A stretch of 57,414 nt of DNA, the filler included, from Stramenopiles sp. TOSAG23-3 (taxonomy: Eukaryota), in the NCBI GenBank assembly GCA_900128585.1. It is 6 parts of 6 records of this genome, joined end to end, with 100 filler letters (N's around TTAATTAATTAA, not from the genome) between each part and the next. Parts side by side here need not be neighbours in the genome. Positions count along the whole stretch, not along the records: positions 17,219 to 34,328 come from LT642462.1; 5 more parts are not named here. One strand, given 5' to 3'. Below the pieces are notes generated by a model, which did no database searches, was not told the origin of the DNA, and was given only the letters and a program-made list of their open reading frames with translations. A program made the position numbers and the translations under genes. Positions 3,424 through 51,593 of the stretch are shown piece by piece (positions within the stretch are counted from its first letter, which is position 1; each line of letters begins with the position of its first letter).

Positions 3424-5247
3424 TCAGAACATTCCGTATATTGAGCCGTCGTCGTTTACCCCGACATTTTCTGCCGCAGGGATTTTAGGCAAACCTGGCA
3501 TTTGCATGATATCGCCAGTTAGCACAACGATAAACTCAGCACCGGCACTGAGACGAACGTCTCTGACTGGGAGAGTGTGACCAGTCGGTGCTCCAAGGGC
3601 TTTTGGGTCTGCACTGAAACTGTATTGCGTCTTTGCCATGCAAACTGGGAAATGGCCGTAGCCGTCTTTGGTAAACTGCTTAAACTTGGTCATTGCTGCG
3701 GCATCAATTGCGATGTCGTCGGCGCGGTACATTTCTTTTGCCACGGTTCGGACTTTTTCGATCAACGGCATGTCGTCACTGTACAGTGGCTTAAAGTTGC
3801 TCTCTTCATTATCGCAAATGTGAGCAACGGCCTCTGCAAGCGCAGTGGCACCGTTTCCGCCGTGGCCATGGTGGTTCGACCGAACAGCGGTGACGCCCAA
3901 TTTTGCGCAAGCGTCCTCCACTGCTTGCATTTCTGCGTCCGTGTCAAATGGAAATTGGTTGACCGCAACAACTACAGGAACGCCGAATTTGCGGACGTTC
4001 TCTATGTGGCGCTCCAAGTTAACCATTCCTTTCTCCACTGCCCCGACGTCTTCGATTTTTGTGAGCGTTTTCTCCTCTGCCCCACCGTGCAGCTTCAAAG
4101 CGCGGCACGTGGCAACAATGACAGCGCAGTCGGGCTTCAGGCCGGACTTTCGGCACTTGATGTTGAAAAATTTCTCAGCACCTAGATCTGCTCCAAAACC
4201 TCCTTCGGTCACAACGTAGTCGCACAGCTTCAGTGATGTCTTCGTCGACACGACGCTGCTGCAACCATGGGCGATGTTGGCGAATGGACCACCATGAATT
4301 ATGGCAGGGTTATTTTCCAGCGTTTGAACCAAGTTGGGCTGCAGTGCATCGCGAAGCAAAGCCGCAAGGGCACCTTCGGCGTTTAGATCTTTGCACGTGA
4401 CGGGCTTGCGGGCGCGGGTGTAGCCGACAACGATTTGCCCCAGCCGCCGCTGAAGGTCGTCCATGTCAGTTGCGAGGCAGAAAATGGCCATGATTTCGCT
4501 TGCAACGGTGATATCAAAACCGTCCTGTCGAGGAATGCCATCCGTTCGCTTTCCAAGGCCGCAGTTAATGTTCCGCAGCGCCCGGTCGTTCATATCAACC
4601 ACTCGCCTCCACGTCACCCTGCGCACGTCCACCAGTGGCTCCTTTGCCCAGTAGATGTGGTTGTCTAGCATCGCCGCCAGTAGGTTGTTTGCAGCCCCAA
4701 TCGCATGCAAGTCCCCGGTGAAATGCAGGTTGATGTCTGCCATGGGGACCACTTGCGCGTACCCCCCCCCTGCGGCGCCCCCTTTCACCCCAAACACGGG
4801 CCCAAGGCTCGGCTCTCGCAAAGACGTCATAGCGTTCTTTCCGATTTTGCAGAGACCGTCGCCCAGGCCTACGCTGGTGCACGTCTTTCCCTCCCCGAAC
4901 CTCGTCGGCGACAACGCGGTGCACAAGATCAGCTTTCCGTCTGGCTTGTCCTTCAGGGAATCGATGTACGAAAAGGGGATTTTAGCCTTGTACCGGCCGT
5001 ATGCTTCCAACTCGTTGTTGTCCGCATTGATTCCGAAGGAGCTCTTGGCAATGTCCGCAATCGGCTTCATGTTTGGGATGTTGGCGTTTGCAATTGCCTC
5101 GTCCGTTAACCCGTGTGGTTCCTCGCCCACACTCACTGTCGTGTGAAACAGACTTGACATTGCTGGCAGTTGGGCACGCCCAGCGGCCAAGTGGGCCCTT
5201 GCGTTGATGGCCGTGCGGCGCAGCGCACTGTGGTAAATGGGAAGCAT
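3424..5247 (-). CDS. fhs: Formate--tetrahydrofolate ligase (FTHFS), monofunctional, with mitochondrial presequence
   Basis: Signature motifs [73 protein letters not shown]. ~45-aa Arg/Ala-rich N-terminal extension whose first ~40 residues contain no acidic residue. Confidence 0.97.
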
Positions 5248-6860: not shown

Positions 6861-7956
6861 ATGAGAACGGCACTAACACGTTTTGCGCGCGCCACGGCTA
6901 CGCATACCCGCCACACCTCGGGACTCCACCTGGCGGGAGCGCGCGGCGTAGCGACAAAGATCGACGGTAACGCCATTGCTTCTGACATTCGCAAAGAGAT
7001 AGCTGAGACGACCAAACAATTGACAGAAAAGCATGGGAAAAAGCCCGGCCTAGCGTAAGTAAAAACAGTTTGTTTCCTTTCTTCCCTCCTGCCCACCCAT
7101 CACCCCCTAACGCGCACGTTCCTCAAACTTCAACATGAAAAGCGTCGTCCTGGTTGGTGCCCGCCCGGATTCCGCAAAGTACGTCAGCATGAAAAAGAAA
7201 GCTGCCAAAGAGGTCGGCATCGAATCCTTCGAAGTCGTACTAGGTGCAGATGCAGATGAAGACGTGCTGGTGCAGCACGTGACAGAACTGAACTCGAACC
7301 CAGACGTGGACGGAATATTGGTGCAGCTTCCCCTCCCAGAACATATCAACCAGAAGCGCGTGCTGGAATGCATCGAAACGGGCAAGGACGTCGATGGCTT
7401 CCACCCTTACAACATGGGGGCACTCGTTCGAAGCGGGGAAGAGTGTCGGCAAGACCGTGTCCCTTGGGAAGGCGTTGCGATGGGAAACGCGCCTTGCACC
7501 CCGCTAGGGTGTGTTGAACTGATTGACCGGGCCGGGGTCGATTTGAACGGGGCGAACGTTGTGATTGTAGGACGAAGCAACATCGTGGGTCTCCCTGTGG
7601 CAACGATGCTTCTGCATAGAAACGCTACGGTCACCTGCTGCCATTCCCGCACAAAAGATTTGCCAAGCGTGGTTCGCCAAGCAGACATTGTCGTCGCTGC
7701 GATTGGCCAGCCAGAATTTGTCCAAGGGGACTGGATCAAACCCGGGGCGTGCGTAATAGACGTTGGGGTAAATTTCAAAGATGACCCATCTCGAAAAACG
7801 GGGCGCAGGATGTGTGGCGACGTTGACTACGCGGCAGCGTCCGAACACGCTGGGCAAATTACCCCGGTCCCAGGTGGCGTCGGCCCAATGACCATTTGCA
7901 TGTTGATGAAAAACACGTTGACCAATTTTGAACGAAGAATGGGAGCGCGCGATTAA
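6861..7956 (+). CDS. folD: Methylenetetrahydrofolate dehydrogenase/cyclohydrolase (FolD), mitochondrial; exons 6861-7054 and 7143-7956
   Basis: Splicing GTAAGT(7055)...CTAAC(7107)...AAG(7142) restores KPGLAVVLVG. Motifs YVSMKKK, DGILVQLPLP, KDVDGFHP, PCTPLG, GRSNIVG, TPVPGGVGPMT. Presequence MRTALTRFARATATHTRH. Confidence 0.97.
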
Positions 7957-13493: not shown

Positions 13494-15731
13494 ATGAAGG
13501 TCTGCGGTCAATTAGTAAAACCATCGCGGTTGGCTACGGGCCAGATTCTTCTGGTATTTTTGACATTTTGTGTTGCGCTTCAACGGCCCTTTCGGCCTCA
13601 CCATGGCGTCCTGACCAAGACGATGATGTGCCTGAAGTGCGACGTAGCGGTAGACTTGCAGAAACAAAAAGAAATGAACGCAATTATGCAGAAACGAAGA
13701 AAGAAGAAAATGGCCCCAATATTGAGAGAGAAAAAATTAAAGAGCATAATTCTGGCAGCAAAAGAGGCAAAACTAAAGAAAGATACCAACCTTCCAGACA
13801 TTGGGCTCGGCAACAGCATTGCGAGAGGGGCCGCCGCGATGGCAAAGGACCTAGCGCTGATCAAGTGCACCAAGTTGCCACTGTTGGCGCGCCAATTATG
13901 CCTTACAAAAACCCAAGAAGAAATGGGGCCCAAGAAGCCTAGTGCTGGAATTGTAAATTTGAATCGGCCAAAGTTAGACTCCGGGCGTCCTACTGCCACA
14001 ATAAAAGTGCAGGTACCGAAAACATTCAGTTTGCCGAAAGTGAAGGAGGGAATCCTAACATTTGAGGACCCCAAAGTGACCCGCAAAAAGAAGGAAATGG
14101 AACTGAAGTCATTGAAGGGGAAAAAGGGGGCGAAAGGTGGGATAAACATCAACGTTGGTGGGAATCTTCCGGACCCTTCCATTCCAAAGAACATCGACAT
14201 TCCTAACCTAGGAAAGGTCCCAAGCGGGAAAACGGCCATCAATACCCTGCCCGGGTCCCTTAATTCGAAAGCTGTCCGAGGGCAGGCACCAAAATCCGCA
14301 ACCTCGCTAACAAATACATTGGCTGGGGCGATGGGAAGTGCCGCAAGCAAGAAAAGCATGACGGGGAAAATGACATATCCTGCACAGTCTGGAGTATTAA
14401 ATAAATGGGCAAATAGTGTCGCTGATAAGGCTGTCTTTGGTGCCTCTGCTAAAAGTGGGCGGGAAAGCGACAGCAAGAGTAAAACCCCCAACCAAGATTT
14501 GGTAAAAGCGGTTGAGCAAAGCTTAGAAGTTAAGGCAGCGAAAGGTCTGTTGCGAAAACGCCTTCCAAAACCAGGAAGTGATGGTCCTGTTGTCGCGCCC
14601 CCCCTTGTCAAAGTACCCAAGAAAAAGAATGTAGAAGCTGAAGAAAAACAATTGAAATTAGCAAAACAAAAGAAAGTGAAACAGCTAAATGCTCCCCCAA
14701 TTATGAAAGGAGAAAATCCCTACAAAGACTTGCAGCCCCCCGAGGTTAGTGCTTCTGGACCCTCTGGTCCGCCGGGGGCATCCGGGCCACCGGAAAACAC
14801 CTACGCAAAAGGCTCTCCAAAAAGTTCCATCAGTGTAGGAAAGCCACCTTCTCCAAAGGCTCGGGAAGCACCCAAAAAGGCTGCTGCTAGTCGTCATGCA
14901 GAAAAAAATCCTGCAAAGGAGATTGAGCAGAAAAAGGAAGTTGCCAAAGACGATTGTACACCGGGTATGTCTTTGCCTCGAAGCGATTACGACCCTTCAC
15001 AGGTCGAAGTGGAACCGAGTGTACCAAAGTGCTCAAAGCCTTGCACAAAGACTGATCCGGAATCTGTCAAACTCTGTGCGTTGAAAAAAGCTAAAAAGCG
15101 CAAGGAGATGTCGCTGCAGCAGGCCGAGCAGGCCGCTGAAGCTGGTGATATTTCTGCCACAAAAGACGCCATGCTGAATGCAGAAAAGAGTAAGTTTGAC
15201 AAAAATGTGTTTTCCAAATCGCAGCCAGTGCAGAAAAGTGCAGCGCTGGATGGTGACTTGGAAGAAGCCCCTCTTGTTATGCCCAAACCAAAAGAAAGCA
15301 AGGTCGGTAAAGTCATTGATGGTACGCCGTGGGATAAGGGAGGAAAGCCAAAATTTGTTAAGGGTCCATCCGTCTGGAGCGCCCAGGGATTAAATTTTTT
15401 AGAGATAAAGGAAGATCCCTTGCCAGATACGGAAGAAGTAAATAGACTCCTTAACCCAAAAAAATTGCTTGGGACAAAGCTTGACCCTAATTTACCGGAC
15501 AATTTGGGGAAAAAAGATGCTAGGATTTCAAATGATAGCCCCGGGACACCAAACTCTGAAGCCGAGAGTTCCCCAGAAGTTAAACATATGGCTTCCATGA
15601 CCATCTGCATCAATGAAGGCTCTATGAGCTTGATAAAAGAATTATTTAAGCAGGTTACAGGGCCCGATGTCAAGATTAGTTGTCAGCCTGCACGGTCGAA
15701 TCGAATGTGGAGAGACCCTGCCGATCCCTGA
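13494..15731 (+). CDS. Hypothetical Lys/Pro-rich, probably secreted protein (~745 aa)
   Basis: Long uninterrupted ORF with coding-like composition. Hydrophobic segment ILLVFLTFCVA shortly after the ATG at 13494. Low-complexity K/P/A/S body. No family recognised. Confidence 0.75.
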   Translation: MKVCGQLVKPSRLATGQILLVFLTFCVALQRPFRPHHGVLTKTMMCLKCDVAVDLQKQKEMNAIMQKRRKKKMAPILREKKLKSIILAAKEAKLKKDTNLPDIGLGNSIARGAAAMAKDLALIKCTKLPLLARQLCLTKTQEEMGPKKPSAGIVNLNRPKLDSGRPTATIKVQVPKTFSLPKVKEGILTFEDPKVTRKKKEMELKSLKGKKGAKGGININVGGNLPDPSIPKNIDIPNLGKVPSGKTAINTLPGSLNSKAVRGQAPKSATSLTNTLAGAMGSAASKKSMTGKMTYPAQSGVLNKWANSVADKAVFGASAKSGRESDSKSKTPNQDLVKAVEQSLEVKAAKGLLRKRLPKPGSDGPVVAPPLVKVPKKKNVEAEEKQLKLAKQKKVKQLNAPPIMKGENPYKDLQPPEVSASGPSGPPGASGPPENTYAKGSPKSSISVGKPPSPKAREAPKKAAASRHAEKNPAKEIEQKKEVAKDDCTPGMSLPRSDYDPSQVEVEPSVPKCSKPCTKTDPESVKLCALKKAKKRKEMSLQQAEQAAEAGDISATKDAMLNAEKSKFDKNVFSKSQPVQKSAALDGDLEEAPLVMPKPKESKVGKVIDGTPWDKGGKPKFVKGPSVWSAQGLNFLEIKEDPLPDTEEVNRLLNPKKLLGTKLDPNLPDNLGKKDARISNDSPGTPNSEAESSPEVKHMASMTICINEGSMSLIKELFKQVTGPDVKISCQPARSNRMWRDPADP

Positions 15732-18699: not shown

Positions 18700-20514
18700 T
18701 CATTCAGTTTTCTTTTTTTTGGAAAGGTTTTCCTCGTCCGCCGCCGTCGTCGTCGTAATCATCTCTTTCTCCTCGTTGGCGTCTTTCCCCCTAGTTTTCT
18801 CGCTCGCTTTCTCTTGCTCGCCGGTCAGCCCGTATTCATTAGCCCTAGTCAAATCAACGGAGTAAATCCATTTCTGGTATAAAAAGATGAAAAATACAAT
18901 GTCATCTCGTAAGCATGCAAGGCGGTGCAAGGTAGGCATTTTGATTATGAATGCAAACAAATCGTCGATAAACGTGCCCAAGGATTTGTACACCATTTTT
19001 CGCCAGGGCAAATGGGCGACGGACTTAAGCTTGTAGTTGATGAAAAGCTGTGGGGTCATAAGAATGAACCCAAACGCGTATATAAAACCGACTGCAGTCG
19101 TCAGAATCCACGAGTAGAACCCCTTGTGTTCGTTGTAGAGGAGCGAATAAATTGCGTATGCAATCAAAAGTGGGTACATGACGGGCATCAAGTACGCCAT
19201 CGCAAGATCGTCGTATTCTTTTGTGTCGGATTCTACGTAGCTTTCGTGGTCCTTCACAGTTATCGACGGAAAGATGGCTCCTTCGGGGTAAAGCACATCG
19301 AATTTTAATATTTTTGAAACTTTCCAAAATTGAATCAACAGGCCTATCGAGTTGCTTACCAATATCATTCGAGATGTGTCGTTGTCCAACAAGTACAACA
19401 AAATTATGCAGTGAAAAATGGTGTTTGTAACTATAGACTTTGTCGAGAGCCCCTTGAGGGATTGTTTGTTTCGCCAAAACGAAATGTCATTCTTAAACGC
19501 CAAACAGTCAAATATGGTGTGAAGAAAAGTCACGATCCCGGTCACTGCTAGCAAGTAGGGGTTTGTTTCCTGCAGCATCCGTTTGATTTCGTCTTGCTGG
19601 CTAAGGCTCTGGGTCCCCCACCGCCGTTGCTTCTCCCAAGATCGCTCCATGTTCGCCTGCATTGACCACTTCATGAATCCTATGCCACTGTACGACGCTT
19701 TGAGCGAAACCTCTGGCAAACTTTTGTTCAAAGCTACAAAATTCGTGGATACCAACCAAAATTCGTTCGCGTATACTGGTGGGTAAAACTTGTTTGCGCT
19801 ATGAAAGGCAAGCCCGATGTCCTTAAATTGTTGGGGCATGGTACGCTGGTCGTGGTCGGGAATGTCCAGAACGAGGTGAAGGGTCAACTCGGGCTTCCAG
19901 TAACGCACTACGCTGAATGATGCACTATCTCCTGCCTGGTCCCCTTCTGCCAAATCACGTTTGCCGGCAGGGATTTTCTTCTCCAAATCCAAATCTACTT
20001 TCTCGTCGCCGTCAAGGTCGTCCTCTTTCGAAGAAACCCCCGTCAACAGATTCCGCGTCTTGGGCCGCTCTTTCTCCAAAACAAACTCTGTCAGCTCGTG
20101 GCGACGGTACAACGTCAGCTCGTCGTACGTTGGGTTGCTGGGGTCGGGGTGTTGTCCCTCCGCAGAAAAAAATGAATGTGAAAAAATGGATACGTTGCTC
20201 TGAAAATCTGGAAAGTCGGCAAAAGACACGTTTATCGTTTTTTCTTTCAGGTTCAATTCGTCCCAGTCATATTTCAGTCCACGCTCGTACCAAACTAGAG
20301 CCTTCTTATTATAAAAGTCTTTGAAATCGAACTCTTTCGATAAATAAATACGCATCTCAAAAGGCCGACTAGGTTCCCATACATTGTTGCCTCCAGGCAA
20401 GGCTGCAACGGTTTCCAAAAGCAATATTTGGAAACAAACAATGAGCAATACGAACGCCAAAGATACACCTGTGAATGAAAAAATGGAAAAAGAAGCGTGC
20501 CTGGAAAAAGGCAT
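18700..20514 (-). CDS. CLPTM1: CLPTM1-family membrane protein (lipid scramblase family)
   Basis: KRMLQETNPYLL, FDCLAFKNDISFW, FILMTPQLFINYKLKSVAHLPW, TFIDDLFAFIIKMPTLHRLACLRDD, YQKWIYSVD...NEYG. Confidence 0.95.
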   Translation of the reverse strand: MPFSRHASFSIFSFTGVSLAFVLLIVCFQILLLETVAALPGGNNVWEPSRPFEMRIYLSKEFDFKDFYNKKALVWYERGLKYDWDELNLKEKTINVSFADFPDFQSNVSIFSHSFFSAEGQHPDPSNPTYDELTLYRRHELTEFVLEKERPKTRNLLTGVSSKEDDLDGDEKVDLDLEKKIPAGKRDLAEGDQAGDSASFSVVRYWKPELTLHLVLDIPDHDQRTMPQQFKDIGLAFHSANKFYPPVYANEFWLVSTNFVALNKSLPEVSLKASYSGIGFMKWSMQANMERSWEKQRRWGTQSLSQQDEIKRMLQETNPYLLAVTGIVTFLHTIFDCLAFKNDISFWRNKQSLKGLSTKSIVTNTIFHCIILLYLLDNDTSRMILVSNSIGLLIQFWKVSKILKFDVLYPEGAIFPSITVKDHESYVESDTKEYDDLAMAYLMPVMYPLLIAYAIYSLLYNEHKGFYSWILTTAVGFIYAFGFILMTPQLFINYKLKSVAHLPWRKMVYKSLGTFIDDLFAFIIKMPTLHRLACLRDDIVFFIFLYQKWIYSVDLTRANEYGLTGEQEKASEKTRGKDANEEKEMITTTTAADEENLSKKKKTE

Positions 20515-21535
20515 CGTCTTTCGTGGGTGGGTGAGCAGAGCAAAAATCGTTTCCGAGCGAACTCTTTGCAGTCGGAGTCGCAGTACAAAGAATTCTCTTT
20601 TTTTTTTGTTAATTCTTTCTTCAAACTATCAATGTAGTACTTCTTTCTCCTTTGCCCAATATTCGCTTAATCAATGGAAAGAAGGAAAGAATCCCATAAA
20701 AGAAATAAACATGTAAGAGTTAGTAACTCCAAACAGCTTGAATTGAGAATTGAGACTTGTTGTTTTTTTGCAATAATAATAATATAAAAAAAAGAAGAAG
20801 ATGGATGGAGATGATGGAGATGGTAGGTGTGTGGTGGTGTGGTGGGGTGGTTGGTTGAAAAAGAGGTATTATTTACTATTCTACCTAGAAGATGAAGAAG
20901 AGAGAGGATGAGACTATGCACATCTGAAAGTTTAACTATGAACAGGACAGGACAGGACTACTTGTTGTATGTAGTCTAAGAAGTAAATGATGAATTATAT
21001 TTGAATGTGTTTGGTTGTCCTTACTATTTAGAGTCTAATTTGTATTTTCAAAAGAAACTATATATTATATTTGTATACTAAATATTATAAATTTCCTATT
21101 AATATTATAGTATTCTATTTTGATTTTTGATTTTGTTGGTAGAAGACGACTTTTAAACACACCACACAACAACTGCTGCAACAACAAACAGAGAGGTGAG
21201 TTCTTCAGAAGAAGAAGAAATTATAATATTTATTGGAAAGAATATATATATGGATGGTGTTTTTCTAAAAAAAGTAGAGACTAAAAGAGAACTAACTATG
21301 TAAAGTCTATGCATGCATTAACAAAGAATTGAGTTTTGAAATGTAATAGAATTATATACCCCTGAAAAAAATATTCAAGTACATGGTCCTGTTTTAAACC
21401 ATTTAATATTCCCGGTTTTTTTAAAACTGAAGCTGCCGTTGATTATGTTTATCACGTGTAAGTAGTGAAAATAGAGGTGGAGAACGAACGACTCTAACGT
21501 GTTCGCTGGGGCACACCAATTTGGAAACTGGGGGT

Positions 21536-24500
21536 ATGAGTCAAATAGTCCCAGTCGTCAATAAAGGCAGGGGGGGTAATCACGGCGTGGAGTCAGTTGG
21601 GGGTAAGGGAAAAGCGAAGTTGACAAAGTACATTCAGTCTCCATCAAAAAAATCAAACCAGGAAGAACATCCCGAAACTTCGGACGATGCGCTGTCTGAC
21701 TACTCGTTTGATTCCCAAGGCTCTTTGGCCATGGAATTGCTTGAACTGAACGATGACGATCCCGAGGAAGAACCAGAGCCGCCGCCAGAGCTGACCGAGC
21801 TGGAGAAGATAGTTGGGTTTGAGGATTCGTCGCGGGGAGACCTTATTTTTGATGGAACTTTCTATGGCCCAAACCAAATGGACGATCCATATTTCGACCA
21901 CGAAGAAATAGAGCTACTTGGAAACGATTTGGTAGAGATTGATTTGCCAAGTGAGCCAAAAGTATCCCAGCTTGTAAGTGAAATTTATACACATTCGCGG
22001 CAAGGGCATGAAGATATAGCACTAGCTAAAGTTAAACAAGAAAAGGAGTTGTTAAGATTGCGCGCGAGAAAGTATGAAGTTTACGGGTGGTTTTCATACA
22101 ATGCTGGGTGGGGAGTTGTGCAAGTGGTGGCAATCGCTTTTTTTTTGCCTATGCTCCTCAGGACTCTAGCGGTCCAATACGCGTGTCCGTACGTAGGGCT
22201 CCCGGCAGCAGGGACAATAATTCGTTGTCCATACTACAAAATGCCAAGTAATTATACCGGAGGGAGATATCCTACGTTTACCCAGTTGCAGCGTAGTGTG
22301 CCGGGCGATGCGTACGAAAAACTCAGGGGATTTTTGTTGTACGATCTAGATGTGTTTTACACGTCGAGGGGCCTTAACGTAACTTCGTTTTCTGGCCCGG
22401 CGGGATCTGTGTATACCGTATCGAATTTTTCAACGCTCCCTACATTCGTCTTGACGCAGCAGTATCGTCGGTTGAAATGGTTAGAATACGGAAACGTAGA
22501 ACGGGGCAACACTACTGCCAATAATTTGACTAATTCTACATGGACAACGCAGCAATGTATCATCGAGAGAAAAGTTATTTTGGGGGGCGAAGTGGAGAGC
22601 CTTTTCAATGCGACAAATGAGACAGTTACCTTCAAAAATGCAACAAATTCAAGCGTAGTGTGTTTACAACAGAATGGCAGTTTTGAGGGAAATGTCTCGA
22701 ATAGCTCAAATAGTTCGAATATTTCTACACTTTGTCGCACTGCTACGGAAGAAATTCATATATGCACATCATGCATCAAACCAAAAATAATTTGGGAAAA
22801 CATCCTATGGACAGAAGATTTTATCAATTTTTCATCGCCGATGGAATATGCCGAATACCCAACAAATGTATCAGTGTATGATTCCGTGGGGGGGCTCGTG
22901 GAAAGAATGCCGACGTACACCAACCTGCAAAACCGTAGTTATAGAGGGGGGATTGAACTTGTAGATGGCTACGAATATGTAGAAGCAGATGGGCACTTGA
23001 ATACCAGTACAACGTGCATGCTGACGTTCAATGACTGGGGTGCGCTGAGGGATGAGCATGAAATTGTGTACTTGCCCTCAATGCAGTGGATTCATAACCC
23101 AAGACTTAATTATTCGTGCGAACCAACAGCAAAAAAAGGAAACGCATCCTATGCTTTGACAGTGCCGATGAATACTACCATGAATTCAACTGTGTATGAC
23201 ATAGATAAACACTCACAAATGGAAATCGAGTTCATGGTTTACAACAACTCTCATCCTTGTGATAATGAGTTCGAATGCACACCTAGCGCAATATGGGGGC
23301 TGTCCAACGCGACAAACCGGAGCGACGCGTCACCGCTGGAGGCTTGGAGTCTTAACGTGTCCTACCCCTACGCCTTAAATTTAACAGATGTGACGGTGGA
23401 GTTCTTGGTTAATTCTTCAAATAAGCATCTGATAAGAAACGAGAACGTGAATGTAAGGCAAGAAGAATTCGGTATGTTTTACCTCACAGTGAAACCAGAG
23501 AAGTGGCGATTTGGATCGTCCACCATCACTGTTGAAATAAAAGGGGCCGAGCCGTTCAACTGCAGCAATTTAAACAGTACAAACAGTAGCTTATGCAATA
23601 CCACAGGCTTTCACCAAAATAAAACGAGCGCCTCGACGTTGTCCAATACTCTGGAAAGCGAAAGAAATGGATCATCCCTGAGGAACCTGACTTTCAATTT
23701 AACTCACTTTCGTTTAGAAACTGCGGGGCTCCGGTTTTCATTTACCGTTAGGGTCAATGAAACCGTGTGTGGACATTTCGTAGATTTTTGGGTGTGGAGA
23801 ATTCGGGCGGTTGACTATCCTCAACACGTGTTTTTCGTGTCGTTTCTGGCCCAATTGGTGGTTGGGCTTCTTTTTGGTGCCGCTGGGGATTACTGCTGTT
23901 TGCGAAGGCTGGGGTTATTTGCGTTTTCAGGTTTTGGTTCGTTTTGTTTGCTGACGTTTTACTTTTGGACACGCCCGCAAGACTACTTGTATGCTGGAAT
24001 TGCCACCGTGGTCTTGGTGGCCAGTTTTGGCACTGCTGCAGTGTATCACAACGCGTACTTAACCCGGCTTGTTCAAGCCGACCTTCCGCTGAACAAACTG
24101 CTCGAAACGATGAACTATTTAAGCGACTTGATCCCATTCAACCAGCAGTATGATGAAATGGTCGATCGGGTGTCGAGTCAGGCGTTTAGGTTAGTGTACG
24201 GATTTGGGGCTTTCGGGCTTTTCGCCTCTTACATGTACATCGCGTGGTCGCAATACGTGTCTGGGGTATGGGACATGTCCATCTCCTTATTTGATTTTCT
24301 CCTAAACCGGTTGAAGTACACCCAGCTATGCTTAGTCGAACCATCAGTAAATGACATGTCAATGATACTTGCGTTCTGTGGGTGCTGGATGGGATTTTTT
24401 GTGCTTGTGAACTCGTCGCTCTCGTGGACCCGGTGGGGAGTGCGCTGTAATAAGATGCCAATATGGGCAAACATTTTGCCTCCAGTTTCATGGATGGCCT

Positions 24501-25798
24501 TCTCCATCTTCAAGCAGGGACAAATGTACTACCGTGAAGACGAATGGAAACTTTTGAAACAGTCCTGGAAAGTGTTGTTGTTGATCTTCATGGCATTTTT
24601 TTGCACAAATGCATTAACATTTACAACCACTGTCCTCGTAAATTCCGAGTTTCATGTAAACGATCAGTTGCCGGAGGATAGCGTTCTGAAGATATCGCAC
24701 TTTTTTCGCATGATTTTGTTGACCTGGGTGCTCACGATTTCTTCTTGGTTGGGCCTGCGGTGCTTCAAAAAGCTCCAGGTAACATTTGAAATGCTTCATA
24801 TCGATGCATTCATGTTTGCAACGGCGCTCTTCCAGTTCTTCATGCTGTACGCCTTGTTTGCTAATTTTGCAGAGCTACCATTTGGTTTAAAATTCGTGGA
24901 AGAGGCATATGCTTTGACGTTCTTTCACGGCCTTTGGAACGGTCCGTTGTATGCATATGGGCGTAGTGCCTTTATGAAAGTCGTTCCTGCTGGGTTTGAC
25001 GCCCAGTTTTTTACATTGTACCAAAGTGCAACTGGTGTAAATGGCAACAGCTGGTTGGGTGCGAAGATGGTAGATAATGAATTCCAAGCCACAGGCACCG
25101 TTCGTCTCATGTATTTGTTTTTGTTCTTGTTCGTGATGTGCATTAATTGCACCTTCTGCTGTGCGTGCCTCAGCGTGGAGCACGGGAAACGAGCGGCTCG
25201 AGCACTAACCCGTGTGGTGAGGCAAAGAAAATTCGCTAAATCATGGAAACACTTGCGCCAACAGGTTAAGAATCGGCATGAAAATGCTGCAGTGTCTGTC
25301 TGGCAGCTGCCAGACTTGATTCACTGTATGCACCGCCAGGTAAATTTTGTCGATGCAATTGATAAGTTTGCCTTGCTCCATCCAAAATGCTCTCGTCGCA
25401 ACGTTGTCAAGAAAGCAAAGAAAATATGTAGACGAGAGATTCAAGACCCGACCCCGTTTTTCATGTTTCAAAAAAATAAACGTCCCCGTGTTGAACCAAA
25501 GTTCCCCTTTATGTCCCATATTGAAATCAACCAAAAGCTATATAAAATGTGGGAAAAGACGGATGAAGAGGAAAGGGCAGTGTTTGCGCAGAAAGCCGAG
25601 GCCGAAGCTGGAAACGATCGACTTCGATACTATGTAAAGCGAAAAGTTTTGTGGCAAGCGCGGTACTCCTTTGAGCTAAAGAAGCTGCCCGAATTCGCCC
25701 CTCATGCGATCCAAATCCAACGCATTGCCCGTGGCTTTTTGTGTCGCAAAAATGTTAAACCAATCCCATCGGTTGCATTAGAAATAGTCAGCGCGTAA
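21536..25798 (+). CDS. Atg22/UMF1-like MFS transporter with a large glycosylated luminal insert and C-terminal winged-helix/HMG-box/IQ tail (~1420 aa)
   Basis: Atg22-like segments EVYGWFSY...FFLPMLLRTLA, VSFLAQ..FGAAGDY..LRR, YHNAYL, YGRSAFMKVVPAGFDAQFFTLY. HMG-like PTPFFMFQKNKRPRV...INQKLYKMWEKTDEEERAVFAQKA. IQ motif AIQIQRIARGFLCRK. Single uninterrupted ORF. Confidence 0.85.
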   Translation: MSQIVPVVNKGRGGNHGVESVGGKGKAKLTKYIQSPSKKSNQEEHPETSDDALSDYSFDSQGSLAMELLELNDDDPEEEPEPPPELTELEKIVGFEDSSRGDLIFDGTFYGPNQMDDPYFDHEEIELLGNDLVEIDLPSEPKVSQLVSEIYTHSRQGHEDIALAKVKQEKELLRLRARKYEVYGWFSYNAGWGVVQVVAIAFFLPMLLRTLAVQYACPYVGLPAAGTIIRCPYYKMPSNYTGGRYPTFTQLQRSVPGDAYEKLRGFLLYDLDVFYTSRGLNVTSFSGPAGSVYTVSNFSTLPTFVLTQQYRRLKWLEYGNVERGNTTANNLTNSTWTTQQCIIERKVILGGEVESLFNATNETVTFKNATNSSVVCLQQNGSFEGNVSNSSNSSNISTLCRTATEEIHICTSCIKPKIIWENILWTEDFINFSSPMEYAEYPTNVSVYDSVGGLVERMPTYTNLQNRSYRGGIELVDGYEYVEADGHLNTSTTCMLTFNDWGALRDEHEIVYLPSMQWIHNPRLNYSCEPTAKKGNASYALTVPMNTTMNSTVYDIDKHSQMEIEFMVYNNSHPCDNEFECTPSAIWGLSNATNRSDASPLEAWSLNVSYPYALNLTDVTVEFLVNSSNKHLIRNENVNVRQEEFGMFYLTVKPEKWRFGSSTITVEIKGAEPFNCSNLNSTNSSLCNTTGFHQNKTSASTLSNTLESERNGSSLRNLTFNLTHFRLETAGLRFSFTVRVNETVCGHFVDFWVWRIRAVDYPQHVFFVSFLAQLVVGLLFGAAGDYCCLRRLGLFAFSGFGSFCLLTFYFWTRPQDYLYAGIATVVLVASFGTAAVYHNAYLTRLVQADLPLNKLLETMNYLSDLIPFNQQYDEMVDRVSSQAFRLVYGFGAFGLFASYMYIAWSQYVSGVWDMSISLFDFLLNRLKYTQLCLVEPSVNDMSMILAFCGCWMGFFVLVNSSLSWTRWGVRCNKMPIWANILPPVSWMAFSIFKQGQMYYREDEWKLLKQSWKVLLLIFMAFFCTNALTFTTTVLVNSEFHVNDQLPEDSVLKISHFFRMILLTWVLTISSWLGLRCFKKLQVTFEMLHIDAFMFATALFQFFMLYALFANFAELPFGLKFVEEAYALTFFHGLWNGPLYAYGRSAFMKVVPAGFDAQFFTLYQSATGVNGNSWLGAKMVDNEFQATGTVRLMYLFLFLFVMCINCTFCCACLSVEHGKRAARALTRVVRQRKFAKSWKHLRQQVKNRHENAAVSVWQLPDLIHCMHRQVNFVDAIDKFALLHPKCSRRNVVKKAKKICRREIQDPTPFFMFQKNKRPRVEPKFPFMSHIEINQKLYKMWEKTDEEERAVFAQKAEAEAGNDRLRYYVKRKVLWQARYSFELKKLPEFAPHAIQIQRIARGFLCRKNVKPIPSVALEIVSA

Positions 25799-26517
25799 AT
25801 ATTATTGCTAAAATAGTACTTAAAACAAGAAAATTGGCTTATATGTACTCGCATGTAGATCCTGCTGTTCGGCGCATCCATTCCTGAAATTAATGGAGTG
25901 GTGCCTAAGAGCTAAGAAAAGGTTTCTTCTTTCTCTTTTGTTTATTAGTTTTTAAAACCAAAAATAGTTTTGTGTCTTCTACTTCGTTTGTTATCTATAG
26001 CTCTAAATATTTTTAATATTATTGGTATTATATGTTCTCTGGGTTCATAATATTATTATATTATTATTACACCTCATCTCATCACACTTCTTGGTAATAT
26101 TATATACTTATCACAGCAGCAGGAGAGGAGGACTGATTATTTGATGATGATGATTCTTTTTTTATTTTGTTTTGTGTTATTATTATTGGTCACCACACCA
26201 CACAACAACAACCAACAACAACTTTTTGAATCAATTCTTGTGATTATTATTATTAGAAAATATATAGTTTACGTAAATTAACTAAACAACGGACGACGGG
26301 TTCAAATGATGAATGGAGGATTACGATGAGGTATAACTAGAGATGGAGATTCAGAATGGCATTCTAGATTATTTTGAGCGAAGTATTGAAGTAGTAATAT
26401 AATCGAACACCACAAGTTCAGCACACTCACTGTGTAAAGACAGTTGGCGCACGCAGGCAGAGAGTTTTTGTCGATTTCACCAACCTTGGCAGCAGCAGCA
26501 AACCCACCCAACCAATA

Positions 26518-27195
26518 ATGAAGGCGTTTTTTGGTAAAAAGAACTACAAAACTTTCAAGCCTTTAAAAAGCTCGTCTGGGAATCAGCAAAGGCTGCGCGA
26601 CTACACAGCATCCACGCTTGGTAGTGGCAATATGCGGGGTGCTGTAGTGGTGCCTGATGGCGAACATAAGTTCGAATGGATAGCAGCGAATACAATGGAC
26701 TTCTTCGACCATATCTCGTTGTGCTATGGGTTAGTTTCGGATCAGGCGTTGGAAAAATTCACAAAGCCCAGCGAGGGCTTCCCCCCTGGTTTTGAATACC
26801 GGTGGGCTGATGGGGTCAAGGTGAAAGCGCCAATTAAATGTTCCTCCCCAGAGTACGTGGACTACGTGATGACGTGGGCAAACGAAAAATTAAATAACCC
26901 GGCAATTTTTCCACTCGATGACGTGTCTGCCTACCCAAAAAAATTTGAAGACGAGGTGAAATCCATCTACAAACGCTTGTTTCGGATCTTTGCAATTATC
27001 TATGCTGTGCACAGCGATACGGTAAAACAGTTGGGCGCTGAGGCGCACTTGAACACCTGTTTTAAACATTTCATGTTTTTCATTTTGGAATTTAAACTAG
27101 TGAACGAAAACGAGATGAAACCAATAAAACTGATTTGCGAGCGTTATATTCAGCAATTCAATGAAGGAGCTGCCGGCCTCGCCAAGAAAGGGTAA
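26518..27195 (+). CDS. MOB1: MOB kinase activator (Mob1/phocein family)
   Basis: TLGSGNMRGAVVVPDGE..EWIAANTMDFF, EYRWADG, SPEYVDYVMTW, KRLFRIFA, AHLNTCFKHF. Confidence 0.95.
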   Translation: MKAFFGKKNYKTFKPLKSSSGNQQRLRDYTASTLGSGNMRGAVVVPDGEHKFEWIAANTMDFFDHISLCYGLVSDQALEKFTKPSEGFPPGFEYRWADGVKVKAPIKCSSPEYVDYVMTWANEKLNNPAIFPLDDVSAYPKKFEDEVKSIYKRLFRIFAIIYAVHSDTVKQLGAEAHLNTCFKHFMFFILEFKLVNENEMKPIKLICERYIQQFNEGAAGLAKKG

Positions 27196-33236: not shown

Positions 33237-34328
33237 ACTATCAGGTACGTACGTCTTCCTTCGCTCTATCAACCCAACTTTTTGCTTGCCTGGAATCGTT
33301 GTATATGCAGTAATATTATTGATAACAAAATCTTCAGTGTGAACGACGAGACGAGGCTTGTGAATATTTCTATGGTTTATGTAGCCCTTGGATCGACTTG
33401 GAGTAGTTGAAGTACATACAAACGTGCCAGGGCATGGTGGTGGAGATACAAACAATCATCGTGGAACAACAAACAACAACAAGCAGCAGCAAGCGGCGAC
33501 ACAAAAAAAAATCATCATGGTGAATATGATGATTCACACAAAAGGAGACACAGGGGGGGAGGGAAGATACGAACGCCAATGACATCGACGTAACATAATG
33601 TGAGGTGATGACGACATTGTGCTCTTTCTTTTCCTTCCTCCTCCCAGCACACCATTTCATATATATAGAGTTACATCAGGGTTATTACAATTATTACTTT
33701 TTAAAGCTAAATAATATTTAATTAGATTAATTAGATGTTTTTTATCATATATTAATGGTTAAATAGTCTAAATATGTTAATTATAAAATAATATTTTTTA
33801 ATCGTTTTATGACTATAAAAGTGCATTTTACACATTAAAATGATTATATATCATAATTATATTAATTTTTAACATTTATTTGTATAAAAAGGTAAAACAG
33901 TATTTCGTTCCCAAAAAAGAATTTTAAATGAATATATTGGCTATTATAACTATAATTTAGTGGTAAAATATGTAATAATAGTCAAAAATAGTTATTTATG
34001 ATAAAACCTAATTGTAACATTATTTATGAGATGCTGTGGTTTTGCTTGCTGGTTATCTTCTTATCTATCGATAGGATGAAACGAATTTGTTATTTTTAGC
34101 TTTTTCAGCAGCAAGCTGAAATGAATGTACGGCTTCCCCCGACTCCCTTCGCTGTGTTGTTGTACTATTGTTTATATAATCCATTTCTTCGTTTAAAATT
34201 ACTCCACTCGCAGAAACAACTAACTCACTCAGCAGCGAATAAAAGATAGTTTGGTGGTATTTAGTTGGTTGTGTACTCTGCGGCACACTCACCGCCTTTC
34301 TCTCTATAAAAAAATAATATATTATCTT

Positions 34329-34428
34329 NNNNNNNNNNNNNNNNNNNNNNNNNNNNNNNNNNNNNNNNNNNNTTAATTAATTAANNNNNNNNNNNNNNNN
34401 NNNNNNNNNNNNNNNNNNNNNNNNNNNN
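34329..34428. other. Artificial contig spacer
   Basis: N44-TTAATTAATTAA-N44. Confidence 0.99.
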
Positions 34429-34979
34429 TGGTGGTGTATATTAATAACTAATGAGATGTGGTGGATTATTTGATTTTTTGATAATAAAAAATATAAATTA
34501 TTATCATTATATATAATAATAATAAAAAAGGGGGTGTAACGGCTAAATAATATACAGACGACTGTCATCCAATCCAAGATATTCTATCGCTGTGTCCAGA
34601 AGATAATCCATCATAAATTATTATTTTGTGTTTTGTGTTCTCTTATGTGTCAGTGAATAGATTAATATTGAGATGAAGAAGAGATGAGATTAATTGAATT
34701 ATTATTATTTTATTATATATATTTTATTACTACTGGTACCTTTGATAACTAACAAATAATGATAAAAAAGAAGAGGAGAAGTATTTTTTTTTGTGTGTGT
34801 TGTATATTTTCTGTAATAACTTTTATTTTTATTGCAGGTGCCGATAGTCTGTGATGATCATTCAATTCGCGAATAGAGCGGCTGCGTAGACCATTCAAAC
34901 AATAAGAAATTTTAGCAGGGGTCGCACCTGTATTTCAATAGATTACACGTTGTTGAGGCTTCGCCGTATTATCAGAGTC

Positions 34980-35763
34980 ATGGACAAGGACGACGAGCAG
35001 AGGCAATTATCGTCGGCTAAACTGATGGCAAAAGTTGATTTGTATTGGAGGGAACAATATAACATAGACATGCTTCGCGATGCCTTAGAAAGAGTAAGTT
35101 CAAAGAAATCAATTGATCCTTTATATTGAAACACTGTTGGATACCTAACAACATTCTGTTCATCATTTGAAGAGGAAAGCCCTGCTGAGAACAATCTTCA
35201 AGTCGGCATATTCCTCAATAGAGGCACCAATATTAAAACTAGTAGAATCGACTGGCAGAGAATCAGAGCAAACGGTAAGAGAAATAGACGGGCACAATTT
35301 AGAATTCGAGGGCATGAAGGAAAAATTAGGGAGCCAAAAATCAGAAATGTTTCATAAGCGCACTTCCGCCGACGAAGCGTTGCGTGTGCACGAAGAGAAA
35401 TGGAAAGCTTTGCAGGCAGAGAAGGACACATTGGTTGCTGCTTTTAACGAGGAGATAGAATCAGGAGCACATATTTTGCAGTCAAAATAAAAAAGGAAGA
35501 GTATAAGACGTTTACAAACGTGGGCGTGTTGCACTCAAAGGGTAGTAAGCCCCCTGATCTGCTCAGTGCGGAAAGTATGGAGCGAAGACGCATGAAAAAG
35601 CAAAAATTACAATTGGAAACAACACTGCGTTCAATGGAAAAACAACAGGAACGTCTGCAAAAATTTGCTGGAGCGTTGAGACTGTATCAGCAGAGAACAA
35701 CGTTTCCGAAATGGTGAAATCAGAGAGCTTAAAAAAGAGCTTAAAAACGCCTTGGTAGCTTAG
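34980..35763 (+). pseudogene. Coiled-coil protein gene with one intron (35094-35172) and two apparent frameshifts (pseudogene or assembly error)
   Basis: ATG at 34980. GTAAGT...CTAAC...AAG intron joins DALER|RKALL in frame. Stop at 35490, but coiled-coil-like sequence continues in shifted frames (IKKEEYK...LRLYQQR, then NGEIRELKKELKNALVA*). Confidence 0.5.
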
Positions 35764-36035
35764 AGAAGAAGATAGGCTGCGAAATGACATTTGCAGTGCA
35801 GAGTGTGTGTGTGCCAATAGTATCATTGAAAAGATTGCGAGGTGGTGGGCTTTAAGATTTTATGAAAAAAAACAAAGATTTTATGAAAAAAAAAACAAAT
35901 TAGAGTATGCTTTAAGACTCTCATTTTATCATATCAATTACGATTTCAGTTCCAACCCTAAACCTAATAAAATGGATTTTTTATTATTGAGAGTCTTAAA
36001 ACATACTATATATTTTGTTTTTTTATTATCATCAT

Positions 36036-36240
36036 AAAATAAGAAAATTGGCTGTTATTTAAGTAAAAAAATTAAAATTTAGCTTTCTCATATACCGCGA
36101 AAATGAATATGATCCAATGAAAAACTAAAACTGCGTTTATTATCACATGCATACGTTAAAAACAAAAAATTTGCTCTGTTATTTAAATAAATTAAAATTT
36201 ATCTTTCTCATGTACCGCGAAAACAAATCTGCTCCTTTTG
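36036..36240 (+). repeat. Two tandem copies (~121-bp period) of an ~80-bp dispersed element
   Basis: AAAATAAGAAAATTGGCTGTTATTTAAGTAA...ATTAAAATTTAGCTTTCTCATATACCGCGAAAATGAAT and AAAAACAAAAAATTTGCTCTGTTATTTAAATAAATTAAAATTTATCTTTCTCATGTACCGCGAAAACAAATCTGCTCCTTTTG. Confidence 0.8.
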
Positions 36241-36811
36241 TATGTTTCAAATTTTGATGTTAAAACCACTCAAGGTTTGTATATGTATAAGTAGTCGTCT
36301 AAGAAGAAAACTGCCTGCTTTTTGCCTCTGGCTGGTTTTCAGTTTCTTCAAGCTCGCAACCGCAAGGGAACAACATCGTAATTGCCCTATTTGTAATTAA
36401 AGAATTCGGGAAGAAGGGAGAGAAATGGAGGAAAATAATAAAGAGGGCGGGAGGAGACAACGTAACACTATAATAATTGATATTAACTACTAATAGCAAA
36501 CGAGTTCGTTCTTCCTTGGGTCGGTACCAGGTACCACCAGGTACAAACTTCAAAATCAGTGAAGAAGAAGCTTTTTTTCTTTTTTTTTTAAAATACACCA
36601 CAGTGTAAAAGAAAATGTGCATGTACAGTAATAATAATAAAAAACCCAACAATTTGTCCATCTAACTTAATCGGTGTATGGTCCATATGTTGGAGACGCC
36701 CCCATTCGTTAAAGTATACTACTCCAGGTTTCTCGCGGGCACGTAGGCCACCCGAATAAAACAAGCAGTTGTCGAAGGCACTTAAAGGGTTGGTGTTGCT
36801 GGGGTACAGCC

Positions 36812-42085: not shown

Positions 42086-43181
42086 TAAGAGTTGCGCCTC
42101 GCTAAATACGTAGTGGTAAGAAAAGCGATGTGTTCGATATCGTGTGGTTTATCTTGCTCGCTGTTCCTATTGTTATACATCTACTTACTATTCAAGCTGT
42201 TGATTTAGATATTAAAATGTTCAATGCATTCTCTCACACACTCACTCACTCCGTCTCTATATGTATGCACATATATATAAGTCGTTCAATTGAAACTAGT
42301 TGTTCATAATAATAATAATAATAATTAATAATTGTGTTTTTTTAAATTTTTTTATTATTATTTATTTTATATCATTCATCATTGGAATCATCCATCCTCC
42401 TCCTCCTACTTGTTTCTCTTCCTATTTTCACACTAGACTATGAAGCTAACTATGAGGAATGTACACAATTAAATAATTAGGACTACGACACTACGACACT
42501 ACGACTCCTCGTAATTGACCAAATTTGGAGTGGATAATCCATTGCCATCCCATCCATCCTCTATTTTTTAAATTATTTTATTATAGACTATAAAAGATGA
42601 ATTTAATTAAACTAGACAATTAAACTACGTGCCATTGCTATTGCTATGGACATTGTACACTCTATTGCTCCTAGGATGAGGATAACAAAAGTGGTAGGTA
42701 GGTTGGGTATTATAATATAGAGAGAGGAGGTATGAGGAGGTGATGTTATTTTATTTAACTTAACGACTATACGAGTATATTGTACAATAATCGCCCTATT
42801 TATTTATATTAAACAACTAATAAAATAATACGAAGTCGTCTGTTCTTGTTACTGTAGTAGTATTGGTAGTAAGTACCCTTTCCTTTTTTTAAAATATTAT
42901 ATTTAAATACTAATAAGTACAAATCTTCTTCTTCTTTTTGCTTTTTTCTTCTTTCTTCTTTCTTCTTTCTTCTTTCTTCTTTCTTCTTTGTATTTTTTTA
43001 AAGACTTTGTATTTATTTTCAGAATATTTGTAATGTTGTTTGGACCGCCTCCTCCCTATCCCTCCCTCCCTCCCTCCCTCCCTCCCTTCATAGTTATAAT
43101 ACAATGTATAACGATATAAATAATAAGAAAAATTTAGACGACCAATATTATTATTTATATAGAACGACTAGTCTATGCAAA

Positions 43182-43305
43182 GCACAGCATAGTCAAAAGG
43201 ATCCTTGACTTCGTAGATCGATCTAATATTCTTTCTATCTATTGCACAGCATAGTCAAAAGGATCCTTGACTTCGTAGATCGATCTAATATTCTTTCTAT
43301 CTATT
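43182..43305. repeat. Exact 62-bp tandem duplication containing two palindromes
   Basis: GCACAGCATAGTCAAAAGGATCCTTGACTTCGTAGATCGATCTAATATTCTTTCTATCTATT at 43182 and 43244. Confidence 0.92.
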
Positions 43306-43846
43306 ATCTACGTACGGATGATGGGTGGTTGTTCGGTATTTTATATGCTGTGTATATGTATAATTAACATATGAATAACATTGCTTTTCTTGACAACCAG
43401 TCGTTCCCTTCATTTCATCGAGAAACATCTCTTCGATAATTAAGGTACATTAATTTATATAACTATGTACTTATACTATTGTAAATAGTATTTATGATAA
43501 AACAAAATATTATTATATTATGAACATATCCCTTACTTTCCAAAACAACAACGAATGGCGATCTCAGATGTCAATAATACCATACCGTACCCCACGCACT
43601 ACTACGACTATGACAAAATAATAATAGAAGATAAAAAAACAAAACAAGGATTCTTCAATTGTTGGGAAGGAAACAAGACAATACGCCACATGTCTGTGTG
43701 TCTGTGTGTGTGTGACGCCAACGACTGCTTGCGAAAGAATTAGATACGTTTAAACTGTCAGGGCTAAACAGAATTGTTAAACAATCTTCATCGATATATA
43801 AGTTGCAAAACTATCAAGACTTTAAAGGTAAACTAAACTAAATACC

Positions 43847-44401
43847 ATGCCAGTTCGTCAGTTCCAAGTCGTCGGTCGTCAAACGCCAACTGCGGCTGTA
43901 CCAGAGCCGCAAATATACCGAATGCGCATTTTTGCGAAGACTCCGGTACAAGCTCGATCCCGCTTTTGGTACTTTCTTCACCAGTACCGCCACATGAAGA
44001 AAACCACGGGCGATATTCTATCGGTTACAGAAATCAGGGAGAAGAACTCTAACATCACCAAGGTATATGCGATTCATTTGAGATACAACTCTCGTAGTGG
44101 AACCCACAATATGATGAAGGAGTACCGTGACACCCGCCTTACCGGAGCAGTCGCACAGATGTACGCCGAGATGGCTTCCCGACACCGTGCACGCGCCACG
44201 TCGATCCAAATCCGTGACACCTGCATCGTTCCTGGTCCACTTGTATCAAAAGATCCTTCTCAAGGCGCCAAGAGAACTTCGATTCTTCAAATCTTGAACA
44301 GCAAAGTCAAGTTCCCAATGCCGCACCGTGTTTCTCGTGCTTCCTCCAAGAAGTACCGCACTGCATTCAAAGCTAGCCGCCCAAGCACGTACCGTGGTTA
44401 A
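43847..44401 (+). CDS. RPL18A: 60S ribosomal protein L18a (eL20)
   Basis: QFQVVGR, IYRMRIFA...ARSRFWYFL, LRYNSRSGTHNMMKEYRD, MASRHRAR, KFPMPHR. Confidence 0.97.
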   Translation: MPVRQFQVVGRQTPTAAVPEPQIYRMRIFAKTPVQARSRFWYFLHQYRHMKKTTGDILSVTEIREKNSNITKVYAIHLRYNSRSGTHNMMKEYRDTRLTGAVAQMYAEMASRHRARATSIQIRDTCIVPGPLVSKDPSQGAKRTSILQILNSKVKFPMPHRVSRASSKKYRTAFKASRPSTYRG

Positions 44402-51493: not shown

Positions 51494-51593
51494 NNNNNNN
51501 NNNNNNNNNNNNNNNNNNNNNNNNNNNNNNNNNNNNNTTAATTAATTAANNNNNNNNNNNNNNNNNNNNNNNNNNNNNNNNNNNNNNNNNNNN
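51494..51593. other. Artificial contig spacer
   Basis: N44-TTAATTAATTAA-N44. Confidence 0.99.

Follow-up and report, generated by a model that had tools for sequence, protein, structure and literature searches.

HMG boxes are soluble nuclear or organellar DNA-bending modules, and some polytopic membrane proteins, among them the lamin B receptor, LEM2/MAN1 and LAMP2C/SIDT2, bind nucleic acid or chromatin through their cytosolic parts. In yeast, the permease-like protein Atg22p consists of 528 amino acids with 12 helices, resides in the vacuolar membrane and is needed for amino-acid efflux (PMC6933646). Here we describe a gene of the marine protist Stramenopiles sp. TOSAG23-3 (assembly GCA_900128585.1) in which a permease-like membrane body and an HMG box are combined in a single polypeptide. 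The gene occupies positions 21536-25798 on the plus strand of a stretch of 57,414 nucleotides, filler included, which is referred to as the window. It encodes a divergent 12-helix protein of the Atg22/UMF1 family, which belongs to the major facilitator superfamily (MFS), from an organism which is poor in introns, and carries two additions to the family plan. The first is a heavily N-glycosylatable insert of about 550 residues between the first and second transmembrane helices (TM1 and TM2), located at the luminal or extracellular side, and the second is a strongly basic cytosolic C-terminal tail of about 208 residues. From the membrane outwards, this tail is composed of a basic juxtamembrane helix, a helical segment without known family, an HMGB-type box, a linker that is conserved and a single IQ motif. 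A full-text search, from which subscription journals are mostly missing so that absence is unproven, returned no published description of an Atg22-HMG-IQ architecture.

Results

Domain organization

The region 21536-25798 is a single open reading frame (ORF) of 1420 codons plus stop, residing in one exon and free of internal stop codons. Pfam searches with its translation identified ATG22 (PF11700; E 5.4e-29, 101.7 bits at a cutoff of 24.1) in two stretches, the better one at residues 761-1221, and an HMG_box (PF00505) with 28.3 bits (cutoff 25.4) at residues 1304-1357, corresponding to nucleotides 25445-25606. The IQ profile (PF00612) matched residues 1391-1408 with 16.6 bits, which is under its cutoff of 20.3. 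A preliminary description of the locus had presented it as an intronless ORF that joins an Atg22-like membrane core to an HMG box and an IQ motif, and had expected all three profiles to match; the ORF and its composition are as described, and the ATG22 and HMG_box profiles exceed their cutoffs, whereas the IQ profile falls short. The sub-coordinates it had assigned, 25304-25440 for the part preceding the box, about 25448-25610 for the box and 25703-25750 for the IQ motif, agree with the translation. The TM1-TM2 insert (residues 213-764) had been overlooked. The parts of the gene, all on the plus strand, are as follows.

21536-25798, plus strand: whole ORF; the identical protein occurs on other public contigs (P0002, L001)
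21536-22114, plus strand: predicted cytosolic N-terminal region, residues 1-193, conserved only at residues 85-193
22115-22171, plus strand: TM1, residues 194-212, hydropathy peak 2.06, 74% and 68% identical in the orthologues
22172-23827, plus strand: luminal or extracellular TM1-TM2 insert, residues 213-764, rich in sequons, 14 cysteines
23828-25171, plus strand: MFS core TM2-TM12 of divergent Atg22/UMF1 type, residues 765-1212, identified by Pfam ATG22, AlphaFold2 and Foldseek
25172-25300, plus strand: basic helical juxtamembrane segment, residues 1213-1255, net charge +10
25301-25432, plus strand: pre-HMG segment, residues 1256-1299, about three short predicted helices, matching no known family
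25433-25633, plus strand: predicted HMG box of HMGB type, residues 1300-1366, with the Pfam match at residues 1304-1357
25634-25702, plus strand: conserved linker, residues 1367-1389, with columns that rank among the best conserved in the tail
25703-25759, plus strand: single IQ motif by consensus, residues 1390-1408 (IQxxxRGxxxR at residues 1394-1404)
25760-25798, plus strand: short non-conserved C-terminus, residues 1409-1420 (17% identity), and stop codon

Core and tail are encoded by one gene

Orthologues with the same layout were identified in other lineages. A word-indexed search with residues 746-1420 yielded two proteins among 4762 candidates, the identical protein on another contig and P0003, a protein of 1377 residues which is 54% identical to the query and for which the precomputed domains are PF11700 and PF00505. 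In BLASTP, P0001 and P0003 align continuously over residues 525-1408 at 52% identity. The second full-length orthologue, P0171 in ENA and P0177 in NCBI, has 1316 residues (1270 in the EukProt model) and the same layout, with Pfam scores of 87.6 bits for ATG22, 33.3 bits for HMG_box and 17.3 bits for IQ; the fragment P0005 was placed in this protein by cluster look-up. The ATG22 scores of the two orthologues are 105.8 and 87.6 bits, and their full-length identities to the window protein are about 50% and 40%. A third lineage is represented by the tail fragment P0007 alone.

A HMMER search of 1.84 billion representative sequences returned 295 matches at E ≤ 0.001, and among the best 150 of these only five had their best stretch in the tail: the orthologue fragments P0004 (99%) and P0007 (68%), and the soluble multi-HMG proteins P0019, P0116 and P0128. 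Within these best 150 of the 295 matches, the tail recurs only in fragments of orthologues. A search among shorter proteins detected no tail homologue that stands alone; two of the 275 shorter candidates matched, both of them orthologue fragments at contig ends. A profile search for related DNA loci, based on a two-sequence alignment, retrieved only L001, a contig with identical sequence.

The continuity of the gene was further examined with independently assembled contigs. A DNA contig (X2, record 26) spans 23790-25807, and two contigs assembled from RNA libraries of two studies, X16 (25117-25531) and X17 (25007-25340), bridge the boundary between TM12 and the tail at 25171/25172. A further contig, X15 (25220-25777), bridges the boundaries between pre-HMG segment and HMG box and between HMG box and IQ motif, and record 22 of X17 passes through the stop codon to position 25847. 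No joint was found in the contigs crossing these boundaries, which answers the question of a chimeric join that the preliminary description had raised. The contigs of the three RNA-library runs lie outside 21000-22161 and 25848-26359, and the uncovered part proves nothing. The same layout in the orthologues, together with the uninterrupted DNA and RNA-library contigs, demonstrates that the fusion of core and tail in one gene is real and is neither an artefact of assembly nor of gene modeling.

With respect to gene structure, the metagenome gene calls of the P0005/P0171 lineage are broken into many pieces of 60-330 residues on long contigs, and one piece of this cluster, P0006, enters unrelated sequence past a conserved Phe-Gly-Leu-Lys motif. 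Thus, in this lineage the gene probably contains introns, unlike in the organism of the window.

The membrane core and the TM1-TM2 insert

Hydropathy analysis places TM1 at residues 194-212 and the other helices within residues 765-1212. AlphaFold2 modeling of residues 180-1379 with a 100-sequence alignment resulted in a predicted TM-score (pTM) of 0.64, with a predicted local distance difference test (pLDDT) of 90-97 for the helix at residues 181-216, which includes TM1, and mostly 85-98 for the core; the list of helices comprises TM1 and 11 further membrane helices, one of which is broken. A Foldseek search returned 201 matches at E ≤ 0.001, and all of the top matches listed are MFS transporters, led by SV2A, FLVCR and PfHT1. 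Profile and fold both place the protein within the Atg22/UMF1 family, as an outlying member. Across 97 other homologues, 47 ATG22 alignment columns are conserved to at least 80%; 29 of them are retained in the window protein, 28 in P0003 and 21 in P0171. Residues D785 and R790, which belong to an Asp-Tyr...Arg motif following TM2, as well as E1123 and R1143 are retained, and in place of two aspartates that are conserved to 94% and 85% in the family, all three orthologues have F1022 and T1166. As far as can be read from the aligned sequences, the loss of these two acidic residues suggests an altered substrate or coupling, or a sensor-like core; a loss of transport is not implied.

The insert of 552 residues between TM1 and TM2 contains 38 of the 40 N-x-S/T sequons of the protein (binomial P 8e-14), and the two orthologues show a similar concentration, with 25 of 32 sequons and 33 of 39. 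Its second half, residues 525-764, is conserved, with identities of 50% and 44% to the orthologues, and is predicted to be rich in beta structure. In the AlphaFold2 model, beta strands with pLDDT values of up to 90 occur at residues 610-669, and residues 265-546 have values below 50. No relative of the insert was found in Pfam, among PDB sequences or in the ESM Atlas. Ten other long Atg22 homologues (741-951 residues) score 269-344 bits on PF11700, and since the Pfam match in these proteins likewise starts after TM1, a long TM1-TM2 loop is not confined to this clade. In contrast, an HMG box, or any domain besides MFS_1, was detected in none of the ten, in line with the earlier assessment that the architecture is unusual for the Atg22 family.

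The N-terminal region is 49% identical to P0003 over residues 85-260 in BLASTP; in a three-way alignment, its identity to the two orthologues is 27% and 18%, and gaps are numerous. For the tail, the net charge amounts to +27 over 196 residues. Based on the presence of 12 helices, the bias of the sequons towards the insert and the positive-inside rule, we infer that the tail is located at the cytosolic or nucleoplasmic side, as had been proposed before.

The C-terminal tail is conserved at fixed spacing

In a three-way alignment, residues 1213-1408 are free of gaps relative to both P0003 and P0171. Identities to P0003 and P0171, respectively, amount to 51% and 47% for the juxtamembrane segment, 55% and 30% for the pre-HMG segment, 58% and 42% for the HMG box, 48% and 52% for the linker, and 58% and 37% for the IQ motif, as compared to 54% and 40% for the MFS core. 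Invariant columns of the linker are K1368, L1372, W1373, R1376, Y1377, L1381, K1382-K1383-L1384 and F1387. The IQ motif is followed by just about 12 poorly conserved residues. This pattern of conservation indicates that the whole tail is under purifying selection, at fixed spacing, in at least three lineages.

The juxtamembrane segment has net charges of +10, +10 and +15 in the three orthologues, and AlphaFold2 predicts helices at residues 1214-1229 and 1235-1249 (pLDDT 61-86). For the pre-HMG segment, residues 1256-1299, searches returned no Pfam match at E ≤ 10 and no PDB sequence match at E ≤ 1, and in both AlphaFold2 runs only short helices, with pLDDT values of 58-78, are predicted in this part, with no beta wing. 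A winged-helix-type unit, which had been suggested here, is therefore not supported. A zinc site was considered for the same segment and ruled out, as the cysteine and histidine residues of the window protein are absent from P0171. The sequence RLRYYVKRKVL, which the preliminary description had listed as an element of its own, is indeed encoded at 25618-25651; it is, however, not a separate unit but consists of the last part of HMG helix 3 as it passes into the conserved linker.

The HMG_box scores are 28.3 bits for the window protein, 25.3 bits for P0003, which is 0.1 short of the cutoff of 25.4, and 33.3 bits for P0171. When a profile of four orthologous tails was compared to the PDB, the best match was HMGB1 box B (E 2.7e-9), and the 13 best matches are all HMGB1, HMGB2 or HMGB3; boxes of these proteins range from E 2.7e-9 to 2e-5, those of SOX and LEF proteins from 0.007 to 0.3. 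The core positions which agree with HMGB1 box B include the aromatic run of helix 1, the Arg-Pro following it and the tryptophan of helix 2. The soluble multi-HMG proteins found in the search of representative sequences matched with E values of 1.5e-13, 6.0e-7 and 1.4e-6, and in BLASTP the box is 33-37% identical (E 4e-9) to the boxes of one of them, the two-box protein P0128 of 261 residues. Judged by these comparisons, the box is of the HMGB type, that is, of the architectural, non-sequence-specific class, and not of the SOX/LEF type. An ESM Atlas search with the tail returned one match at 0.82, under the guide value of 0.9, which was set aside.

The consensus IQxxxRGxxxR is exactly preserved at the homologous position in all four sequences. 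When the whole protein was shuffled 20000 times, an exact IQ consensus arose by chance in 124 of the resulting sequences; for the tail, shuffled equally often, the number was 41. The tail profile matches the IQ region of myosin-Va (E 1.5e-3 and 4.9e-3). A pattern scan for EF-hands found none within the window.

Genomic setting

The window is gene-dense, with 23 ORFs of at least 200 residues in 57 kb, which are mostly uninterrupted and encode ordinary eukaryotic housekeeping proteins. tRNA and Rfam searches of the window gave no matches. The gene is flanked by the following two genes.

18700-20514, minus strand: CLPTM1
26518-27195, plus strand: Mob1

CLPTM1 has one relative at 55% identity in environmental data, and its other matches are protist, plant and coral proteins at 40-45%. 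In the relative with about 50% identity, CLPTM1 and the Atg22-HMG orthologue are recorded on contigs of equal sizes (56075, 53452, 42866 and 20137 bases); judged solely by these equal contig sizes, the two genes are probably neighbours there as well. With regard to the environmental distribution, part of the window sequence is present in 20 rows of marine metagenome runs, 14 of them with at least half of the sampled words; 13 studies are represented, and one row is possibly the source.

Several other features of the window were noted. An ORF of 342 residues at 54091-55119 (plus strand) matches only the C-terminal domain of dynein heavy chains (Dynein_C, E 1.9e-26). Upstream of it, the closest ORFs with 200 residues or more (50393-52507) are on the opposite strand and leave no room for a full heavy chain. 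This ORF may encode a stand-alone domain protein, or it may be what remains of a gene, or the final exon of one with long introns. Formate-tetrahydrofolate ligase (3424-5247, minus strand) and the dehydrogenase/cyclohydrolase (7135-7956, plus strand) are encoded by separate, divergently arranged genes and not as one trifunctional protein. The match to the catalytic domain in the dehydrogenase/cyclohydrolase ORF begins at profile position 32 of 115, and its actual start, or a first exon, may be situated further upstream. The stretches lowest in guanine and cytosine, 33237-36811 and 42086-44890 (0.34 compared to about 0.43 elsewhere), are gaps without an ORF of at least 200 residues. Four ORFs of 236-745 residues belong to no Pfam family at E ≤ 1e-5: 13494-15731 and 649-1359 on the plus strand, and 50393-51160 and 51542-52507 on the minus strand.

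Discussion

Function of the HMG-IQ tail

The joining of an HMG box to a 12-helix permease and a calmodulin-type motif points to a coupling between a membrane protein and nucleic acid or chromatin which has not been described, and candidate roles of such a protein are that of a tether, of a receptor in nucleic-acid turnover or of a releasable signal. Our favoured reading, which we put forward tentatively and from sequence comparisons, is that of a divergent Atg22-type permease whose tail stays anchored, binds nucleic acid in the manner of HMGB proteins and is gated by a calmodulin-like protein. We favour an anchored tail because the box is of HMGB type, nothing is conserved past the IQ motif and the distance between TM12 and the IQ motif is invariant; a gap-free stretch from TM12 to the IQ motif fits a module acting at a fixed distance from the membrane. 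The HMG-IQ tail would then work while still joined to the membrane protein. The box would bind nucleic acid, be it bent or structured DNA, chromatin or RNA, independently of sequence and at the surface of an endomembrane facing the cytosol or nucleoplasm, and the IQ helix, which follows HMG helix 3 at a distance of about 25 residues, would carry calmodulin or a calmodulin-like light chain that gates this binding or couples it to the permease. If the protein resides in a vacuole- or lysosome-type membrane, for which there is precedent in the family, the tail would be a nucleic-acid receptor. Given the divergence of the clade, it might alternatively be located in the endoplasmic reticulum or the nuclear envelope, where the tail would tether chromatin.

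A number of observations weigh against this reading. The net charge of the box is only +1 (isoelectric point 8.2) in the window protein, as compared to +3 and +5 in the orthologues, and the basic residues just before helix 1 of HMGB1 box B align with glutamine and aspartate. Due to these replacements, the nucleic-acid affinity of the box alone may be weak. In the AlphaFold2 model the HMG helices appear at the expected places, but pLDDT values of 59-90 for helices 2 and 3 stand against 34-43 for helix 1; with helix 1 modeled this poorly, the L-shaped HMG fold is predicted rather than structurally demonstrated. A model of the tail alone, based on a six-sequence alignment, had a mean pLDDT of 47 and was not used for claims about the fold. 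The Pfam IQ profile stays under its cutoff of 20.3 bits in all three full-length proteins (16.6 for the window protein, 17.3 for P0171), and for P0003 no Pfam IQ match was obtained at E ≤ 1. Furthermore, the vacuole, where yeast Atg22 is found, is not a usual location of DNA, while the membrane of the window protein is itself predicted by analogy. Finally, transcription of the gene is supported rather than proven by the RNA-library contigs, as such libraries may contain DNA.

Some of the same features would be expected if the tail had a purely regulatory or scaffolding role, in which calmodulin or acidic lipids, bound by the basic helix and the IQ motif, would turn the permease on and off, and the HMG fold would be co-opted for contacts between proteins without any involvement of nucleic acid. 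Calmodulin-binding tails regulate many channels, pumps and exchangers, and the preservation of the IQ consensus in four of four sequences, the strongly basic juxtamembrane segment (+10 to +15) and a box which in the window protein is nearly neutral and has its basic positions before helix 1 replaced are all in favour of such a role. However, the box agrees with HMGB1 box B at its core positions, is conserved as strongly as the membrane core, and has ordinary soluble multi-HMG proteins of chromatin type as its closest relatives. We regard this possibility as somewhat unlikely.

It might also be speculated that the protein is a membrane-tethered regulator of transcription, from which a nutrient- or Ca2+-dependent protease would free the HMG-IQ tail to enter the nucleus and affect gene expression. 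Proteins released from membranes in this manner include SREBP, ATF6 and Notch, the C-terminal fragment of the Cav1.2 channel carries an IQ motif, and the HMG boxes of SRY and SOX undergo calmodulin-dependent nuclear import. A DNA-binding-type domain on the cytosolic side of a protein resembling a nutrient permease would suit this role, and the basic clusters beside the box could be nuclear import signals. On the other hand, the box resembles architectural HMGB boxes and not the sequence-specific boxes of SOX and LEF; the tail has no activation domain or other additional domain, only about 12 non-conserved residues past the IQ motif; no cleavage motif or partner protease was identified; and the juxtamembrane linker aligns without gaps and at about 50% identity across the orthologues, which would not be expected of a tether meant for cutting. 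Taken together, we consider release of the tail decidedly improbable. That the ORF is an artefact of a chimeric assembly or of read-through between adjacent permease and HMG genes, which was considered because the window and its relatives are environmental assemblies and for which nothing positive speaks, is next to impossible in view of the recurrence of this continuous ORF, with about 50% and 40% identity, in two further lineages, the bridging of every domain boundary by independent DNA and RNA-library contigs and the lack of a stand-alone tail homologue other than the two contig-end fragments of orthologues among 275 shorter candidates.

Returning to the idea of a nucleic-acid-binding tail, a more far-reaching version would make the protein the first polytopic protein of transporter type to contact nucleic acid through its own HMG box, either as a chromatin tether of the nuclear envelope under the control of calmodulin, or as a permease of lysosome type with a tail that captures DNA or RNA, or that is set free to reach the nucleus upon changes in nutrient or Ca2+ status. 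We consider this version unlikely as it stands; if true, a single protein would connect membrane transport to the genome in marine protists that are abundant.

Comparison with known systems

With the Atg22/UMF1 family, the window protein shares the Pfam match, the 12-helix MFS fold and the family signatures. It differs by its length of 1420 residues, by a profile score of about 100 bits as opposed to 270-340 for ordinary homologues, by the addition of the insert and the HMG-IQ tail, and by the loss of two conserved aspartates. With boxes of HMGB type it has in common the profile match and the aromatic and tryptophan core positions, whereas the attachment to a polytopic membrane protein, the IQ motif following the box, a lower net charge, of +1 to +5, and the partial replacement of basic residues set it apart.

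SV2A and MFS proteins like it, in which a large luminal domain is glycosylated, are the best Foldseek matches for the membrane body, a likeness limited to the MFS fold at 10-11% identity. They share with the window protein a big extracytosolic insert; the luminal domain of SV2, however, is not located between TM1 and TM2, and SV2A is without an HMG or IQ tail. Nutrient sensors of the Snf3/Rgt2 type, transporter-like receptors with signalling tails, likewise add to an MFS body a long cytosolic tail at the C-terminus which their transporting relatives lack, and perhaps share altered transport residues. They belong to another MFS family, the likeness being one of principle only, and we know of no HMG or IQ units in their tails. 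The likeness to the calmodulin-binding tails of channels is equally one of principle. The lamin B receptor, LEM2/MAN1 and LAMP2C/SIDT2 have no sequence relation to the window protein, use other binding domains and lack an MFS body; what they have in common with it is solely the principle of a basic soluble domain which holds DNA, chromatin or RNA at a membrane.

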